Shown here: positions 7,691 to 45,848 of the stretch, piece after piece | Numbering within the stretch: position 1 is the stretch's first letter | Layout of the letters: every line of letters starts with the position of its first letter | NCBI GenBank assembly: GCA_036396115.1 | Contig: DASWLN010000038.1 | Span: 1-47,429 of the forward strand | Origin: Candidatus Zixiibacteriota bacterium | Lineage (GTDB): Bacteria; Zixibacteria; MSB-5A5; DASWLN01 | Reading direction: 5' to 3' | DNA length: 47,429 nucleotides | Program-made: the position numbers and the translations under genes | Notes under the pieces: model-generated | Database searches by the model: none | What the model was told of the DNA's origin: nothing | What the model saw: the letters and a program-made list of their open reading frames with translations, nothing else

Positions 7691-7837
7691 AACTGGCAAG
7701 AATAGTATTAGTTTTCTACGGGACATTCTGGTATGTCGCCTGCGTTTCTACCCCCCCCCACTCTCTGGGGTTTTTTATTAAAATCATTTGCCTTTTTGGG
7801 TATAAGGGTTATTATTTGTTATGTCAATGCCCTTAAA

Positions 7838-15150: not shown

Positions 15151-15171
15151 AAGTCGAAATGAGCCAAAACT

Positions 15172-15203
15172 AAAAACCCTCCCGCTTCAGCAGGAGGGTT
15201 TTT
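15172..15203. terminator. Intrinsic (bidirectional-type) terminator
   Basis: AAAAACCCTCC-loop-GGAGGGTTTTT, 22 bp after the PorV-like stop. Confidence 0.85.
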
Positions 15204-15208
15204 GTATT

Positions 15209-15530
15209 GTAGGGGTCGCATTCCCTGGCCATGGAGGTCGAGCGGGGTGTGAACCGTTCTGGTTCACACCGGGGAAGAACGGGTAGGCTGACTTGGTCCC
15301 GCATTTTGCGGGATCGGGTGAGGAAACCCGGCAGGTACAATGGTCCGCACAGGGATAAATTCCCTGTGCTACGAATATAACATGTCGTAGGTGTGGGAAT
15401 TTCGTTGGTTCGGGAATTGGATTTCCCGAACCACTTGTGAGCGGGAATTCCACAGGTAGACAAATGTATTAATCTTCTTTGTGTCGGGTAGCTCGCCAAA
15501 TGGCTCACAACCCGACCTACAGTGTCTAAA
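15209..15530. repeat. Cluster of GTAG-type palindromic repeats
   Basis: 15222-15296 matches the reverse complement of about 47262-47307, with a 23-bp insert at 15247-15269. Also TTCGGGAATTGGATTTCCCGAA and GGTCGGG..CCCGACCTAC-type hairpins. Confidence 0.75.
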
Positions 15531-17888: not shown

Positions 17889-17909
17889 TATGAAAGAATA
17901 TCAGAGTAT

Positions 17910-18108
17910 CCCCGTAGGGGGGATGAATGACATTTCTATAAGTTCCCTCTCCCTTGGGGGAGAGGGTTAGAGCCTGCCCTAAAGCGAAGCGAAGGGGTGA
18001 GGGGGATAACGAAGATGATTCTTACCCCTCTCTCCGCCTTTGGCGGGATTTTCAACTTAGTCCTCCCCCTCAAGGGGGAGGAGATGTTTTGGATGCCCCC
18101 GTAGGGGG
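17910..18108. repeat. Non-coding copy of both DUF559-element ends, each with a nested insert, bracketed by CCCCGTAGGGG palindromes
   Basis: CCCTCTCCCTTGGGGGAGAGGGTTAG[..]GGTGAGGGGG at 17945-18005 and CCCCTCTC[..]CTTAGTCCTCCCCCTCAAGGGGGAGGAG at 18025-18083. Confidence 0.75.
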
Positions 18109-18117
18109 AAAGCTCAC

Positions 18118-21582: not shown

Positions 21583-22628
21583 TAGTCCTTTTCACGTTCA
21601 TCATATCATTGCTCATAAGTTTTGCCATAACCTTTTGGATTAGAAATGTTTGTATCAGGCATAATCTATTGGATCATCCAGACCAAAGGAAGATGCATAC
21701 AACCCCGATTCCTCGCTTGGGGGGAGTGGGCATATTTCTGTCCATTTTGGTATCGCTCTTAATTGTTTTCCTTTTCAAGAGTTCGCTCTTCCGTGAAATA
21801 GAATCTCAAATCCTGTTTGTGCTATTAAGTGGGATGGTGATATTTGGCTTGGGATTATATGATGACCTTAAGCCGGTTAAACCAGAAATCAAACTAATTT
21901 TTCAGGCAATTGCCTCCCTTATTCTAATCTTAGCTGGCTTGAGGATAAACCTCATTCACATACCTTTTTATCGAACCATCAATTTGGGATGGTTCAGTTA
22001 TCCCCTCACCTTAATTTGGTTTTTAGTCATCGTCAATGCTATGAATCTATTGGATGGTCTGGATGGTTTGGCGGCTGGGGTTTCAGTCATAGCCGCAGGC
22101 TCACTTTTAGTAGTAGGTTATATGCTCAAAGTGGATATCGCCCTTTTGATATCCGCAAGCGTTGCCGGAAGCTGTTTGGGTTTTCTAAGATATAACTATT
22201 TTCCGGCCAGCATATTCATGGGGGATTCCGGTTCACTTTTTCTCGGTTACCTTTTTGCCTTGATGGCAATCATCTGTCCCATCAAAAGTTACACCAGTAT
22301 GGCTCTTTTCGTTCCGCTTTTGGCTCTGGGGGTGCCGCTAATTGAGATAACGATTTCTTCTTTTAGGCGAATCATAGGAAAGCAAACCTTATATCTGGCT
22401 GACAAAAGGCATATATTTCATTTCCTGATAGAAAAAGGTTTCAGCCATAGAGATACAGTCTGGCTATTTTATCTTTTGTCCTTGATCTTCGCTATTATGG
22501 TGATCAGCCTTCTGACTCAGAGCCATAAAATCGCTTTGCTCTTGGTCTTTTTATTAATATTGACCTTCGGGACAATTTTTGTATCTTGGTATAACAGGAC
22601 GCAAGCAAAGCTCAAAGCGGAGAAGTAA
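21579..22628 (+). CDS. wecA: Undecaprenyl-phosphate GlcNAc-1-phosphate transferase (WecA/TagO, MraY-like GT4)
   Basis: [46 protein letters not shown]. Multi-TM. Confidence 0.88.
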
Positions 22629-39122: not shown

Positions 39123-39382
39123 GTAGCGGAGGTCTTTAGACCTCCATCTACCCCAAATAGATGCTATAGAAAGCTGAAGCTTTCCGCTACATAAAATATC
39201 AGGGACAGAACATTGTTCTGTCCCTACAAATTCTCAAAAACCCAAAACTGATTTATGGTAGGTATAGATACTTAGGCCTACCTCTGCGTTCTGTTTAAAG
39301 TAGGCGACATTCGCGAATGTCGCCTACAAAGCTTTCTGCTAATGCTTGTCAATAAAAATGGAAACCTAAAGGTTTCCGCTAC
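39123..39382. repeat. BIME-like cluster of six different GTAG/CTAC-tagged hairpins
   Basis: Hairpins at 39123-39151, 39167-39190, 39201-39227, 39258-39281, 39300-39327 (perfect 28-bp palindrome) and 39360-39382. Confidence 0.8.
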
Positions 39383-40915: not shown

Positions 40916-42451
40916 TCACATCCCCAAAGTTCTATCCAAACTTCTATACTGAATCGCTTCGCTGATATGCTGGGGTAAGATTTCTTTTTGGTTTTCCAAA
41001 TCGGCAATGGTTCGGGCAACTTTTATGATTCTATCATAAGCTCGTGCAGATAAGCCCAAACGGGTGATAGCCATTCTCAAAAGTTCTTTGGAGCTTTCGT
41101 CAATCGGGCAATATTTTCTTATATCCTTAGAATCCATATGCGCATTGCAGAAGATATGCTTTTCTTTCTTAAATCTCTCTAATTGAGTTTTCCTTGCCTT
41201 ATTAACTCTCTCTCGAATAAGGGTTGAATTCTCGCCAGTCGGCTCACCGGAAAGCTCCTTAAATTTGACTGCGGGAACTTCGATATGAATATCGATCCTG
41301 TCCAGAAGTGGCCCGGAGATTCGGCTGACATATCTTTGAATTTGCAAAGGAGAGCAGGAGCAATCGTGGATCAAATCTCCATGATAGCCGCAAGGGCAGG
41401 GATTCATTGCGCCAACTAACATAAACTTGGCTGGGTAAGTTAAGGACATCAAAGCTCTAGAAATAGTGACTCTCCCATCTTCCATCGGCTGTCTTAATAC
41501 CTCTAAAACATCCTTGTGAAATTCCGGCATCTCATCTAAAAACAAGACTCCGTGATGAGCTAAACTCACCTCACCTGGTCGGGGAATCTTGCCTCCACCA
41601 ACCAGTCCGGCATCGCTTATCGTATGATGTGGAGAGCGGAAGGGACGTGTAGCTATCAAGGCGGCATTTGAGGGTAAAAATCCAGCCACTGAATGAATCT
41701 TGGTTGTCTCTAAAGCTTCGTCCAGAGTCAGATTGGGCAAGATGGTGGGTAATCTTCTCGCAAGCATAGTCTTTCCAGAGCCAGGGGGGCCAAGTAAGAT
41801 TATATTGTGTCCTCCTGCAGCTGCAACCTCCAATGCCCTTTTGGTGTGCTCCTGACCTTTGACGTCTGAAAAATCTAACTTGTAATCTAGCGCCTCCTCA
41901 AAAACTTGATTTACATCAATGGTGAATGGTTTGGTAGAAAGTTCATTTTCTAGAAAAGAGACGGCCTCCTTCAGATTGCTTACCGGATAAATCTCCACGT
42001 CCTTTGCCATGGCCGCTTCCTTAGCATTCTCCTTGGGCAAAATCATTCCCTTGATGTTGTTCTTACGGGCTGAAAGTGCCATAGGCAAAGCACCGTGAAT
42101 GGGCCTTACTGCACCGTCTAACGAGAGTTCGCCTAAGATTAGATAGTCCTCAAAGTTTTCTTTTGAGACTTGCCCGGTGGCTGAGAGTATGCCAACAGCT
42201 ATTGGGAGGTCGAAAGAGGAACCCTCTTTTTTTATATCCGCCGGCGCTAAGTTTACGGTGATTTTCTTATTGGGAAAAGTAAATCCGGAGTTCTTAATGG
42301 CAGATTGAACTCTTTCCCGACTCTCCTTTACTGCATTATCAGGTAATCCAACCGTAGTGAAAGAGGGAAGCTGAGGTGAGATGTCCGCCTCAACTTGGAC
42401 AACATAGGCATCTATGCCTAAGACTGCACTGGAAAGTATTTTGGAGAGCAT
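40916..42451 (-). CDS. comM: YifB/ComM family Mg-chelatase-like AAA+ ATPase
   Basis: [67 protein letters not shown]. Confidence 0.93.
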
Positions 42452-42633
42452 ATTTTATGAATTAACCGAATCCTTTGCAGGCGACATTCGCCAATGTCGC
42501 GTAGATTTTTTAGAAGTGTCAGGAGTAGCTCCTGACACAATGCGAAACGAAGTTCAAGGTCCCTGCTACTAAAATCTGGTTTTCAGAATTGATGTGCCGT
42601 GCTTTCTTTCCTTCTTGGTTAGGCCGTTTTTTT

Positions 42634-43079
42634 CCTCTCCCCATGGGGGAGAGGATTAAGGTGAGGGGGTAAGTTTCCCTTTTTCTATATTCTCTTGAAT
42701 TACTCGGCAAACTCCCTCAATATTCTTCAGTATCTCGCTATCACTGAATCTCAATATCCGTACCCCCAATTGCGACAACTCCTTTGTTCTTAATTCGTCT
42801 TCACTTCTGTGGTCATCTTCGTAATGCTGTCCGCCATCCGACTCAATGCCGAGCTTACATTTGGGAGAGTAGAAATCCAATATATATCTGCCGATGGAAA
42901 ATTGCCTCCTGAACTTTGCGCTAGCCAGCTGACGATTTCGCAATATTGACCAAAGTTTCCTTTCGGTATCTGTTTGGTTTTTTCGCAGGTTTCGTGATCT
43001 TTCAACATTCTTTCGTTTCATCTCACTCTCTGAGATTTGTCTTCCCCCTCACCCTATCCCTCTCCCCAAAGGGGAGAGG
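42634..43079. mobile_element. Putative DUF559 endonuclease mini-element bounded by 35-bp hairpin-bearing terminal inverted repeats
   Basis: Left end CCTCTCCCC-ATG-GGGGAGAGG-ATTAAG-GTGAGGGG (42634-42668). Right end CCCCTCAC-CCTATC-CCTCTCCCC-AAA-GGGGAGAGG (43045-43079), its imperfect reverse complement. Confidence 0.65.
42656..43021 (-). CDS. DUF559 / Vsr-like PD-(D/E)XK endonuclease
   Basis: LRKNQTDTERKLW..LR......FRRQ..IG.YILDFY....LGIESDGGQH.....D..R...L...G.RILRF. The stop codon lies inside the left terminal repeat. Confidence 0.9.
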   Translation of the reverse strand: MKRKNVERSRNLRKNQTDTERKLWSILRNRQLASAKFRRQFSIGRYILDFYSPKCKLGIESDGGQHYEDDHRSEDELRTKELSQLGVRILRFSDSEILKNIEGVCRVIQENIEKGKLTPSP

Positions 43080-43120
43080 GAACTTTGTTTCTCGAGGTCA
43101 TGGGACCCCCAGATTACCTA

Positions 43121-43609
43121 TTATCTGTTCTTCTCTTTCCACTTCACCACATGCACACAATATTTTCCGCCGCTGGGGATGGATTCGGAGATAACATATT
43201 CCAAATCTTTGTTAAGCTCTTCCACCAAAGTCCTTTCCATAGTGGTGTGAGCTTGGCAGATTTTGGGGTCATCAAAAGGATAGGGGCACTGGTAAAGCTT
43301 AATTACCACTTTATCATCTGAGAACTCCGAGACCTCTCCTTCGCAGTCTATCATTGAGAAAATTCTCAGAAGATAAAGCCCTACCTCCTGGGGAGTTGGA
43401 TTTCCCATTTTCTTTTTGGCGAATTCAGCCACTTGCTTGCCATAAGTGTGGCTGACTTCCTGAATTAAATCCAGTCCAGCTTCGCCGAATTTTTTGTAAA
43501 GACCTTTGTAGATGGTATTTATTCTGCTAAGAAGCGCTTTGGTGGAAGTGCGGTATTTTTTATCAAGTGGTATTTCGGGTAATTCTAGTCCCTTTGGAGT
43601 TTTGAGCAT
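43121..43609 (-). CDS. L-2-aminothiazoline-4-carboxylate hydrolase-like / V4R-fold protein
   Basis: Helical N-terminus, then ..KLYQCPY...IC..........SESIPSGGKYC.H, with three conserved-looking Cys. Confidence 0.6.
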   Translation of the reverse strand: MLKTPKGLELPEIPLDKKYRTSTKALLSRINTIYKGLYKKFGEAGLDLIQEVSHTYGKQVAEFAKKKMGNPTPQEVGLYLLRIFSMIDCEGEVSEFSDDKVVIKLYQCPYPFDDPKICQAHTTMERTLVEELNKDLEYVISESIPSGGKYCVHVVKWKEKNR

Positions 43610-43637
43610 AAACCCTTTCCGTGGCTGGAAAAGTCCC

Positions 43638-43892
43638 CTAAACTACCTTGTAGACAGTATCATTATGACGGACTGCACCATTGATCTTGATTCCGATGGA
43701 AATTCCAGCTTTGGCTTCTTGCACCTGCTCATGTTCAATTTGCATAGATTCCACCTTCTGGGTCAGGTCGGTGGTGTGCCCGTGGATGTGGATAGTGTCA
43801 CCCACTTTTAGAATGCCGTGAGTGATATCAATTGCGGCAACATCTATCTTTTTGAAATACCCCGCAATCTTACCTACGATTTCCTCTGGCAT
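43638..43892 (-). CDS. Translation elongation factor-like small beta-barrel protein
   Basis: VGKIAGYF.KI.VAAI......LKVGDTIHI.GHTTD..Q.VESMQIEH..V..A..G..IGIK. Confidence 0.8.
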   Translation of the reverse strand: MPEEIVGKIAGYFKKIDVAAIDITHGILKVGDTIHIHGHTTDLTQKVESMQIEHEQVQEAKAGISIGIKINGAVRHNDTVYKVV

Positions 43893-45513: not shown

Positions 45514-45848
45514 TGTCATTCCCGCCCCGCATTTCTGCGGGGTAAACTCCAGCGGGAATCCAGAAACAGATGAAACCGAAACTCCAGCAATAACAAAAAC
45601 TGGATTCCGCCCTAACTACTGGGTTTTCAACATCAAGTGCGGAATGACGTACTGTGTGTTTCCGTAGGGATGGGAATTTATGGTTCGACTTTGCTCACCA
45701 TCCTGAGCCTGTCGAAGGATCCCATCCCGCGTAGGCGACATTCGCGAATGTCGCCTACAATAGATTTTATGTAGGGGTTGGATTTATCTTGCCTGTGGCG
45801 GGATTTATCCGACCTAACCCCCAGCGGGCTTGATGAATCAAGCCCCTA
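45514..45848. repeat. Cluster of CGTC- and GTAG-type palindromic repeats
   Basis: GTCATTCCCGCC..GCGGGAATCCAG; GTTCGACTTTGCTCACCATCCTGAGCCTGTCGAAGG; perfect palindrome at 45731-45758 identical to 39300-39327; 17-bp insert at 45787-45803. Confidence 0.85.

Follow-up and report, generated by a model that had tools for sequence, protein, structure and literature searches.

The window analysed here, contig C38 (47,429 nucleotides) of a 1.48-Mb, 65%-complete metagenome-assembled genome (MAG, G000) of a Zixibacteria bacterium, carries at positions 42633-43081 a discrete, horizontally spread cassette, which is composed of a DUF559 nuclease gene, a 5' TM module and an inverted 3' TM module of slightly different subtype. 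TM/BoxC repeats have been known since the 1990s. Judged by their sequence, the cassette ends belong to this published repeat (TM/TMECO, or BoxC) and not to a new family, with triplex folding predicted here by a sequence rule. No published description of the pairing between DUF559 and TM was found, the repeat itself being known; in the literature mentioning DUF559 no description of repeat flanks was found, and the paper that describes the repeat in E. coli (PMC4666352) does not mention DUF559. The explanation that we tentatively prefer, at somewhat less than an even chance, is a homing-like selfish cassette living in TM hairpin sites.

Anatomy of the cassette and its ends

The cassette holds one intact DUF559 gene between two inverted ends of 37-39 nt, each made of an outer hairpin and an inner G-rich box (AGGTGAGGGGG at 42659-42669 and CCCCCTCACCC at 43044-43054). 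Over 39 nt the arms (42631-42669 and 43044-43082) repeat each other in inverted orientation, with 85% complementarity, and the outer hairpins are perfect, with stems of 10-11 bp and 3-nt loops (42633-42642/42646-42655 and 43057-43067/43071-43081). Folded as single-stranded DNA (ssDNA), the ends reach -10.7 and -12.5 kcal/mol, with z of about -3, and the hairpin pattern was matched at these two sites only in the 47-kb window and in none of 100 shuffles. The 5' end (43044-43081, minus strand) is a TM module with the hairpin TCCCTCTCCCC-TTT-GGGGAGAGGGA, a T(A) spacer and the box AGGGTGAGGGGG. From this box to the ATG runs a 22-nt leader (43022-43043, minus strand), purine-rich directly before the start codon, and then the gene itself (42656-43021, minus strand, 121 aa; Pfam PF04480, E = 2e-33), the sole substantial open reading frame (ORF) between the arms. 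The 3' end of the cassette in the sense of the gene (42633-42669, plus strand) is a TM-type module in which the hairpin TCCTCTCCCC-ATG-GGGGAGAGGA (42633-42655) and the third-strand box (42659-42669) are separated by the spacer TTA (42656-42658), the complement of the stop codon; the four final codons of the ORF (T P S P) lie inside the box, and the stop codon inside the 3-nt spacer between box and hairpin. The initial annotation had described an intact-looking 121-aa DUF559 gene alone in its unit, inverted hairpin-bearing ends with an inner box, and terminal codons placed within the end repeat, and in all of this it was right. Rfam returned nothing at gathering score in the window, and the cassette, which has no intron, is free-standing and intergenic.

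The consensus of the E. coli TM repeat is CCCTCNCCC-N3-6-GGGNGAGGG-N3-GGGNGAGGG (Holder et al., 2015, NAR, PMC4666352). The element, also called TMECO, BoxC or PIT (Hoyne et al., 2000, as cited in PMC4666352), occurs in more than 260 genomes, also in inverted pairs of two subtypes; a mobility function was never found near TMs and no protein partner was named (Holder et al., 2015). The 5' end of the cassette (43046-43080, minus strand), which reads CCCTCTCCCCTTTGGGGAGAGGGATAGGGTGAGGG, fits this consensus exactly, so the repeat that the initial annotation had treated as unnamed does have a name, while the 3' end is one base off and has a 5-nt spacer; the MAG contains nine exact matches. In both ends the box mirrors the purine arm perfectly under the rule G*G, A*A, T*A, that is, the purine-motif triplets G*G-C, A*A-T and T*A-T. 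The comparison of the mirror rule with a direct-copy rule is weak over all arms, many of which are mirror-symmetric, and it was therefore repeated with asymmetric arms only, of which, genome-wide, 76 pass the mirror rule and 34 the direct-copy rule. Arm and box also co-vary from one family of modules to another: matches between an arm and its own box numbered 104, against 39.6 (maximum 53) after the flanks had been dealt among the modules. The modules here share with TM/TMECO the pyrimidine arm, the purine arm and the G-rich third strand, as well as the multi-copy, intergenic occurrence, the inverted pairs of two subtypes and the hypervariable loci. They differ in that the TM pair encloses a nuclease gene, as is the rule for DUF559 genes, and in that the triplex was demonstrated in vitro, by circular dichroism and nuclear magnetic resonance, for the E. 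coli sequence only (PMC4666352).

The loop between purine arm and box often holds a small GC hairpin of its own, such as TGTCGCGAAGCGACA, and while this insert varies, hairpin and box stay in register, as at loci L029, L049, L012 and L006 of Zixibacteria and L106, L113, L111 and L122 of Alphaproteobacteria; nested hairpins of this kind would be the behaviour of a folded element. The Rfam family whalefall-1 (RF01762) gave sub-threshold scores (13-18 bits, gathering 37) at 43039-43082 (minus), 17943-18004 (plus) and 18060-18113 (minus). Its consensus, CUCUCC..GGAGAG followed by about 23 nt and AGGGUGAGGA, resembles a TM module with an insert, and the metagenomic whalefall-1 "RNA motif" may be this DNA repeat.

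The encoded protein matches PF04480 with 114.8 bits (cut-off 20.6) over profile positions 3-108 of 109. DUF559 and MTES_1575 are the only Pfam families matched, and the Pfam and NCBIfam profile searches of the cassette protein revealed no recognised transposase, the HUH Y1 type (TnpA_REP) included. Among known structures, PDB 3hrl (N. gonorrhoeae NGO0050) was matched at E = 1.7e-15. An AlphaFold (AF2) model built from 27 sequences (pLDDT 80.8) was aligned by Foldseek to 3hrl with a TM score of 0.88, to the catalytic domain of I-Bth0305I with 0.79 (probability 1.00) and to Vsr (1vsr) with a TMq of 0.60. The residues R13, E20, W24, F37, R39, Q40, D49, F50, E60, D62, G63, H66, D75, R78 and R91 are all present and (nearly) invariant in 65 homologues from the phylum; within them the core D49, E60, D62, G63 and H66 (D...E-x-D-G-x-x-H) is kept at 97-100% in these homologues and is invariant in 27 cross-phylum sequences. 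Comparison of two copies from one genome gives a dN/dS of 0.20, and comparison across two species one of 0.11; the protein is therefore under purifying selection. Taken together, the conserved catalytic residues, the low dN/dS and the fold match suggest that the cassette encodes a functional nuclease.

The protein also matched NCBIfam PRK09767 (YcjD) over its full length, and since the 76.7 bits fall below the equivalog cut-off of 218, it is not a YcjD orthologue. E. coli YcjD and NGO0050 share with it the single-domain architecture of about 117-121 aa, but the flanks of ycjD are degenerate, whereas both ends of the window cassette are intact. In E. coli K-12, whose genome has 23 TMECO sites (locus L096, NC_000913.3 1351040-1352000), the TM element TMECO no. 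9 lies about 170 nt 3' of ycjD, preceded by a degenerate second copy of the last ~45 nt of the gene, and the ycjD start codon sits inside a perfect 18-bp hairpin of another kind. According to its title, one study is said to discuss the cellular role of a Vsr-like DUF559 protein in Caulobacter.

Spread, mobility and genomic context

The pairing between gene and repeat is specific. In the MAG, a strict module detector found 104 modules of several subtypes, and all five DUF559 genes are framed by hairpin-plus-box modules with the boxes facing inward. The box-inward pairs of up to 700 bp comprise these five genes (344-404 nt between the modules) and three gene-less pairs (17-21 nt), with nothing between. 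Gene-less copies of the family amount to 68-75 hairpins and 38 hairpin-plus-box modules in 1.48 Mb; 33 of the 75 hairpins of the subtype F1 (pattern GGAGAGG-N2-8-GGTGAGG) have no box, and at least 13 pairs face each other by their hairpins, with 10-14-nt spacers.

A survey of the phylum covered 121 genomes from 80 genera, where DUF559 is patchy (52 genomes, 31 genera). Five loci from the MAG and 66 that were fetched gave 71 in total, and automatic counts, made over 65 of them, detected a module upstream in 46, downstream in 46 and on both sides in 37; more are framed by eye, because nested inserts and short stems escape the detector. For other phyla a single protein served as query and one genome per species was scanned. 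About 24 of 26 DUF559 relatives found in eight of them (Omnitrophota, Elusimicrobia, Ratteibacteria, Chloroflexota, Alphaproteobacteria, Binatota, Melainabacteria and Bacteroidota) are framed alike and with the same polarity, subtype a at the 5' side and subtype b at the 3' side, and the polarity of the gene relative to these subtypes is constant in all copies seen. Between phyla the ends are 84-94% identical to those of the window, and the gene 62-71%, at the nucleotide level. The proposal of the initial annotation that DUF559 homologues would be flanked by these repeats is thus supported by most of the 71 phylum loci and by nearly all of those from other phyla.

Related cassettes have also been duplicated within a genome and have alleles bounded by hairpins. 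In G078 two copies are 91.5% identical over 493 nt and lie between unrelated flanks, with the homology stopping at the modules. The occupied site of G003 reads GTTA/TTCCCCCTTAGCAAAGGGGG-TTA-GGGGGTT...gene...AACCCCC-TAA-CCCCCTTTGCTAAGGGGGAA/TATCGAAAC, and at the orthologous site G018 has GTTA/TTCCCCCTTAGCAAAGGGGGAA/, a single hairpin identical to that of G003, and G075 a degenerate hairpin; G003 and G018 differ by the box, the gene, the second box (box') and a second, inverted hairpin. The closest relative of the window cassette (73% aa identity), that of G101, has direct repeats of about 66 nt (box'-hairpin-9 nt-hairpin) on both sides of box and gene. At the orthologous site a single unit of this kind, without the gene, is present in G096, only a lone hairpin in G117, and a different TM family in G103 and G127. 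Of the features of insertion sequences and miniature inverted-repeat elements, terminal inverted repeats are present, whereas target duplication and a recognised transposase are absent; no target-site duplication was found outside the ends at C38, C122, L039 and L042. The cassette belongs to neither the DDE nor the HUH transposons.

Gene-less arrangements related to cassette ends are found elsewhere in the MAG. The pair at C146:211-304 has ends nearly identical to those of the window cassette around a centre of 19-21 nt; compared as a deletion derivative, this centre (19 nt) shares only the short GAGA(G)TTTG..CT with the window leader. Another gene-less element, of 80-110 nt and with conserved flanks, has the order box'-hairpin(CCCCTCTTT/AAAGAGGGG)-~11 nt-hairpin(TCCCCCTTT/AAAGGGGGA)-box and was seen at C2:3765-3843, C22:4754-4833, C42:9228-9304, C102:10884-10962 and 15158-15235, C168:98639-98717 and 124307-124382, and C182:2238-2314. 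This order, to which the hairpin-inward pairs of subtype F2/F3 conform, corresponds to the two ends of the C2 DUF559 cassette after circular permutation, and resembles the joint that a circularised or tandem cassette would have.

In the window itself the initial annotation had placed gene-less copies of the ends at several sites, and only one was seen, a TM module at 17945-18005 (plus strand) with the hairpin CCCTCTCCC-TTG-GGGGAGAGGG, a 27-nt insert and the box GGGGTGAGGGGG; CCCCTCACC at 22002 lies within a coding region, without a hairpin, and is a chance match. This module stands in an intergenic segment of 230 nt (17889-18117) in which five different GC-rich hairpin repeats form a chain: CCCCGTAGGGGGG, the TM module, CCGCCTTTGGCGGG, CCTCCCCCTCAAGGGGGAGG and CCCCCGTAGGGGG. 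Because a similar composite recurs on at least eight other contigs (C21, C24, C52, C75, C86, C105, C124 and C168), TM modules also move as parts of a larger repeat.

The upstream neighbour of the cassette, ORF162 (43121-43609, minus strand), encodes a conserved 162-aa protein without a Pfam or NCBIfam match, and is syntenic with an 84-aa EF-Tu-domain-2-like gene (43638-43892). Eleven relatives within the order retain this pair, with neither DUF559 nor comM downstream. What follows their ORF162 orthologues is another gene and palindromic repeats that differ from species to species, and the window locus is not conserved across these relatives. The downstream neighbour is a ComM/YifB-type Mg-chelatase-like ATPase gene (40916-42451, minus strand; assigned by Pfam), and in no relative examined does it lie next to the ORF162 orthologue, so that the cassette stands at a synteny break. 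One other close metagenome contig, found by scanning, is identical, cassette included. The window further contains a family of 28-30-nt palindromes, GTAGGCGACATTCGCGAATGTCGCCTAC, at 39300-39329, 42477-42506 and 45731-45760 (and 7716-7745), the copy at 42477-42506 lying about 130 nt downstream of the cassette and just upstream of the comM start.

Dependence between the repeat and the gene

Across the phylum survey, the F1 pattern stood far above its control, the same pattern read backwards (0-2 per genome), in 70 of the 121 genomes; genomes with a count of 5 or more are called F1-rich. In pooled data the presence of any DUF559 gene is associated with F1 richness with an odds ratio (OR) of 17 (p = 8e-11), a value that is not relied on because it drops to a Mantel-Haenszel (MH) OR of 2.6 (p = 0.17, not significant) after stratification by host family. 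When the types are matched, that is, F1-end DUF559 genes against an F1 count of at least 5, the pooled OR is 51 and the stratified MH OR 16 (p = 6e-4), mostly owing to one family. As many as 25 of the 27 genomes with an F1-type DUF559 gene are F1-rich, but only about 26 of the 43 F1-rich genomes have an F1-type gene. At least 14 F1-rich genomes (about 17 of 43) lack the cognate DUF559, and seven have no DUF559 even at E <= 5. Copy numbers of F1 in genomes without DUF559 reach 64 in G083, 39 in G116, 28 in G093, 21 in G047, which is 100% complete, and 12 in G037, a single contig. The initial annotation had named repeat-rich genomes lacking DUF559 as evidence that would speak against its proposal; such genomes do exist, G083 and G037 among them, yet the type-matched association holds after stratification. 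Mainly, then, it is the cassette that depends on the repeats, and this asymmetric dependency is better accounted for by a cassette that exploits the repeats than by one that drives them.

Protein clade and repeat subtype go together, a point that the initial annotation had proposed to check. On the protein tree the repeat class needs nine changes, compared with 25.8 in shuffles (0 of 200 as low). The five copies of the MAG fall into four clades, each with its own subtype, and those clades are also found in further families of the order. The match is tighter for modules of the F4 type, which reach at least eight copies in only six genomes, five of which carry an F4-clade gene. Such a match would be expected if gene and ends travel as one unit, and alone is no proof of recognition. 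As a separate observation, the DUF559 gene of one genome (G006:C6:90035-90342) is split in two overlapping frames, a probable frameshifted pseudogene, and this genome keeps 20 F1 modules.

Competing explanations and implications

The homing-like explanation is the best supported because it brings together the Vsr/EDxHD fold, the asymmetric dependency and the sharp alleles of related cassettes. Under it, the nuclease would nick or cut at or beside an unoccupied TM-type hairpin, perhaps when this is extruded or single-stranded, and the break would be repaired from an occupied copy. The palindromic hairpin arms would provide the homology, as they are present at both cassette ends and in the lone hairpin; such repair could thus turn a broken lone hairpin, H, into exactly the occupied structure, H-box-gene-box'-H'. 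The reverse step, loss of the cassette, would come about by recombination or slippage, either between its two hairpins or between two hairpin pairs that flank it, and the gene-less TM copies would be mainly its habitat and its footprints rather than its offspring. A close parallel is the homing endonuclease I-Bth0305I, the one characterised relative of this kind with the Vsr/EDxHD fold, with which the DUF559 cassette shares the catalytic fold, the E-x-D...H core, sharp occupied and empty alleles (seen here in related cassettes) and the character of a putatively selfish, horizontally spread gene; it differs in the lack of an intron or intein and in a proposed target that would be a dispersed palindromic repeat rather than a unique site in a conserved gene (PMC3239194).

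Several points weigh against this explanation. That the nuclease acts on TM DNA is what we infer, as are the direction in which the events ran and the way the breaks would be repaired, and the pairs of empty and occupied sites give no direction, since they could equally reflect deletion between hairpins. Hairpin arms of 7-11 nt are a very short homology for recombinational repair, and I-Bth0305I has additional DNA-binding domains that the 121-aa protein lacks. Solo modules and hairpin-inward pairs make up most of the gene-less copies, and for these the homing model offers no explanation of its own. A scan of 42300-43700 gave no promoter-like site, leaving the cassette without a promoter of its own here. 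Finally, empty orthologous sites, which the initial annotation had proposed to look for, are seen for the related cassettes of G003/G018 and G101/G096, and no empty allele was found for the window locus among the 11 relatives, whose neighbouring protein is only about 58% identical and whose gene order is different.

A second explanation, which we regard as possible although doubtful, is that the TMs owe their spread and rearrangement to the host, for instance to replication slippage or template switching where hairpins or triplexes form, or to another enzyme, and that DUF559 is a cellular nuclease whose own activity is not needed for the moves. It would handle hairpin or triplex structures, or serve in unrelated repair or restriction, while its gene moves by general recombination among TMs. 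The abundance of TMs without DUF559 agrees with this, as does the finding that TM loci are rearrangement hot spots in E. coli (PMC4666352), to which the orthologous intergenic repeats that differ in every species here are comparable; PADLOC, for its part, gave weak matches only, to methyl-directed restriction enzymes and DpdF. What such a passenger role leaves unexplained is that DUF559 genes are the only ones framed by convergent modules of up to 700 bp in the MAG, and that an architecture of fixed polarity is found in at least nine phyla, with ends better conserved than the gene. Co-resident lineages that each keep their own subtype are likewise hard to explain without functional coupling.

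The initial annotation had proposed a REP/RAYT-like system run by the nuclease, in which DUF559 would act in trans to make, copy and maintain all TMs, with the cassette as autonomous member and the modules that lack a gene as its non-autonomous products. The part of this proposal that stands is the discrete, specific and recurrent cassette, for which the anatomy of RAYT loci is an apt comparison: in REP/REPIN-RAYT systems too, an enzyme gene lies between inverted cognate hairpin repeats, dozens of gene-less copies occur per genome, and where several enzyme lineages share a genome, each is paired with a repeat type of its own (PMC3116915, PMC3337134). The match of subtype to clade, the type-matched co-occurrence and the near-identical ends of the gene-less pair on C146 are also in its favour. 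Nevertheless, we consider a driver of this kind unlikely, as many repeat-rich genomes have no cognate DUF559, several of them none at all, the stratified association with any DUF559 is not significant, and a nuclease alone cannot rejoin DNA. The systems differ further in the enzyme, a PD-(D/E)XK nuclease of Vsr fold here and an HUH Y1 transposase in RAYT, and in inheritance, DUF559 being multi-copy, patchy and cross-phylum whereas RAYTs are single-copy and vertical (bioRxiv 10.1101/2022.05.22.493013); moreover, TM repeats persist in many genomes without the gene and have a third-strand box.

Quite improbable, in our judgement, is a role of the end modules in expression, as terminators, insulators or RNA-stabilising stem-loops that control a potentially toxic nuclease, with the scattered copies acting likewise elsewhere. 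The hairpins are indeed stable, one of them was flagged as terminator-like on the plus strand, and the modules are intergenic and often at the 3' ends of genes. However, because the ends are inverted copies, the purine-motif fold is possible on the sense strand at the 5' end alone and on the antisense strand at the 3' end alone, a symmetry that belongs to the DNA and not to the mRNA. In the sense of the gene the hairpins are not followed by a T-run, the box is held to a mirror image of the stem rather than to its complement, and the presence/absence alleles are bounded by hairpins. Phase variation, with the gene as a segment that is inverted between its two end repeats, deserves almost no credence, even though DUF559 is enriched (odds ratio 14) among predicted programmed-inversion targets (PMC9881135), because the cassette and its immediate surroundings contain no promoter-like site, no recombinase gene was found near it among the window ORFs, and the gene keeps the same polarity towards subtypes a and b in every copy, which frequent inversion would scramble.

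Another known association of a small stand-alone nuclease gene with dispersed hairpin repeats is that of the Ssn GIY-YIG nucleases with the NTS/SRM repeats (PMC11893778), where nuclease fold and repeat are unrelated to those described here, and where site-specific cleavage of the repeat as ssDNA is demonstrated by experiment. Given the recurrence of the cassette across many phyla, DUF559 would be the best candidate for the missing protein partner of the TM repeat, though the repeat thrives in genomes without the gene. A more far-reaching view, in which DUF559 proteins are structure-specific enzymes that read the folded intrastrand triplex, and the protein so far missing from the system, through which TM/BoxC repeats are seeded, moved and made uniform in hundreds of bacterial genomes, with the repeat-rich genomes that lack the gene as recent losses, appears to us improbable on balance. 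If it were true, this would be a third independent symbiosis between nuclease and repeat, beside RAYT-REP and Ssn-NTS, and the first with triplex DNA as the recognition element. DUF559 is a very large family without an assigned function. If the protein recognises the motif, an orphan repeat would be explained, a function would be given to DUF559 and a natural nuclease for a non-B DNA structure would be at hand; if it does not, the cassette still shows a gene that uses dispersed palindromes as landing pads.

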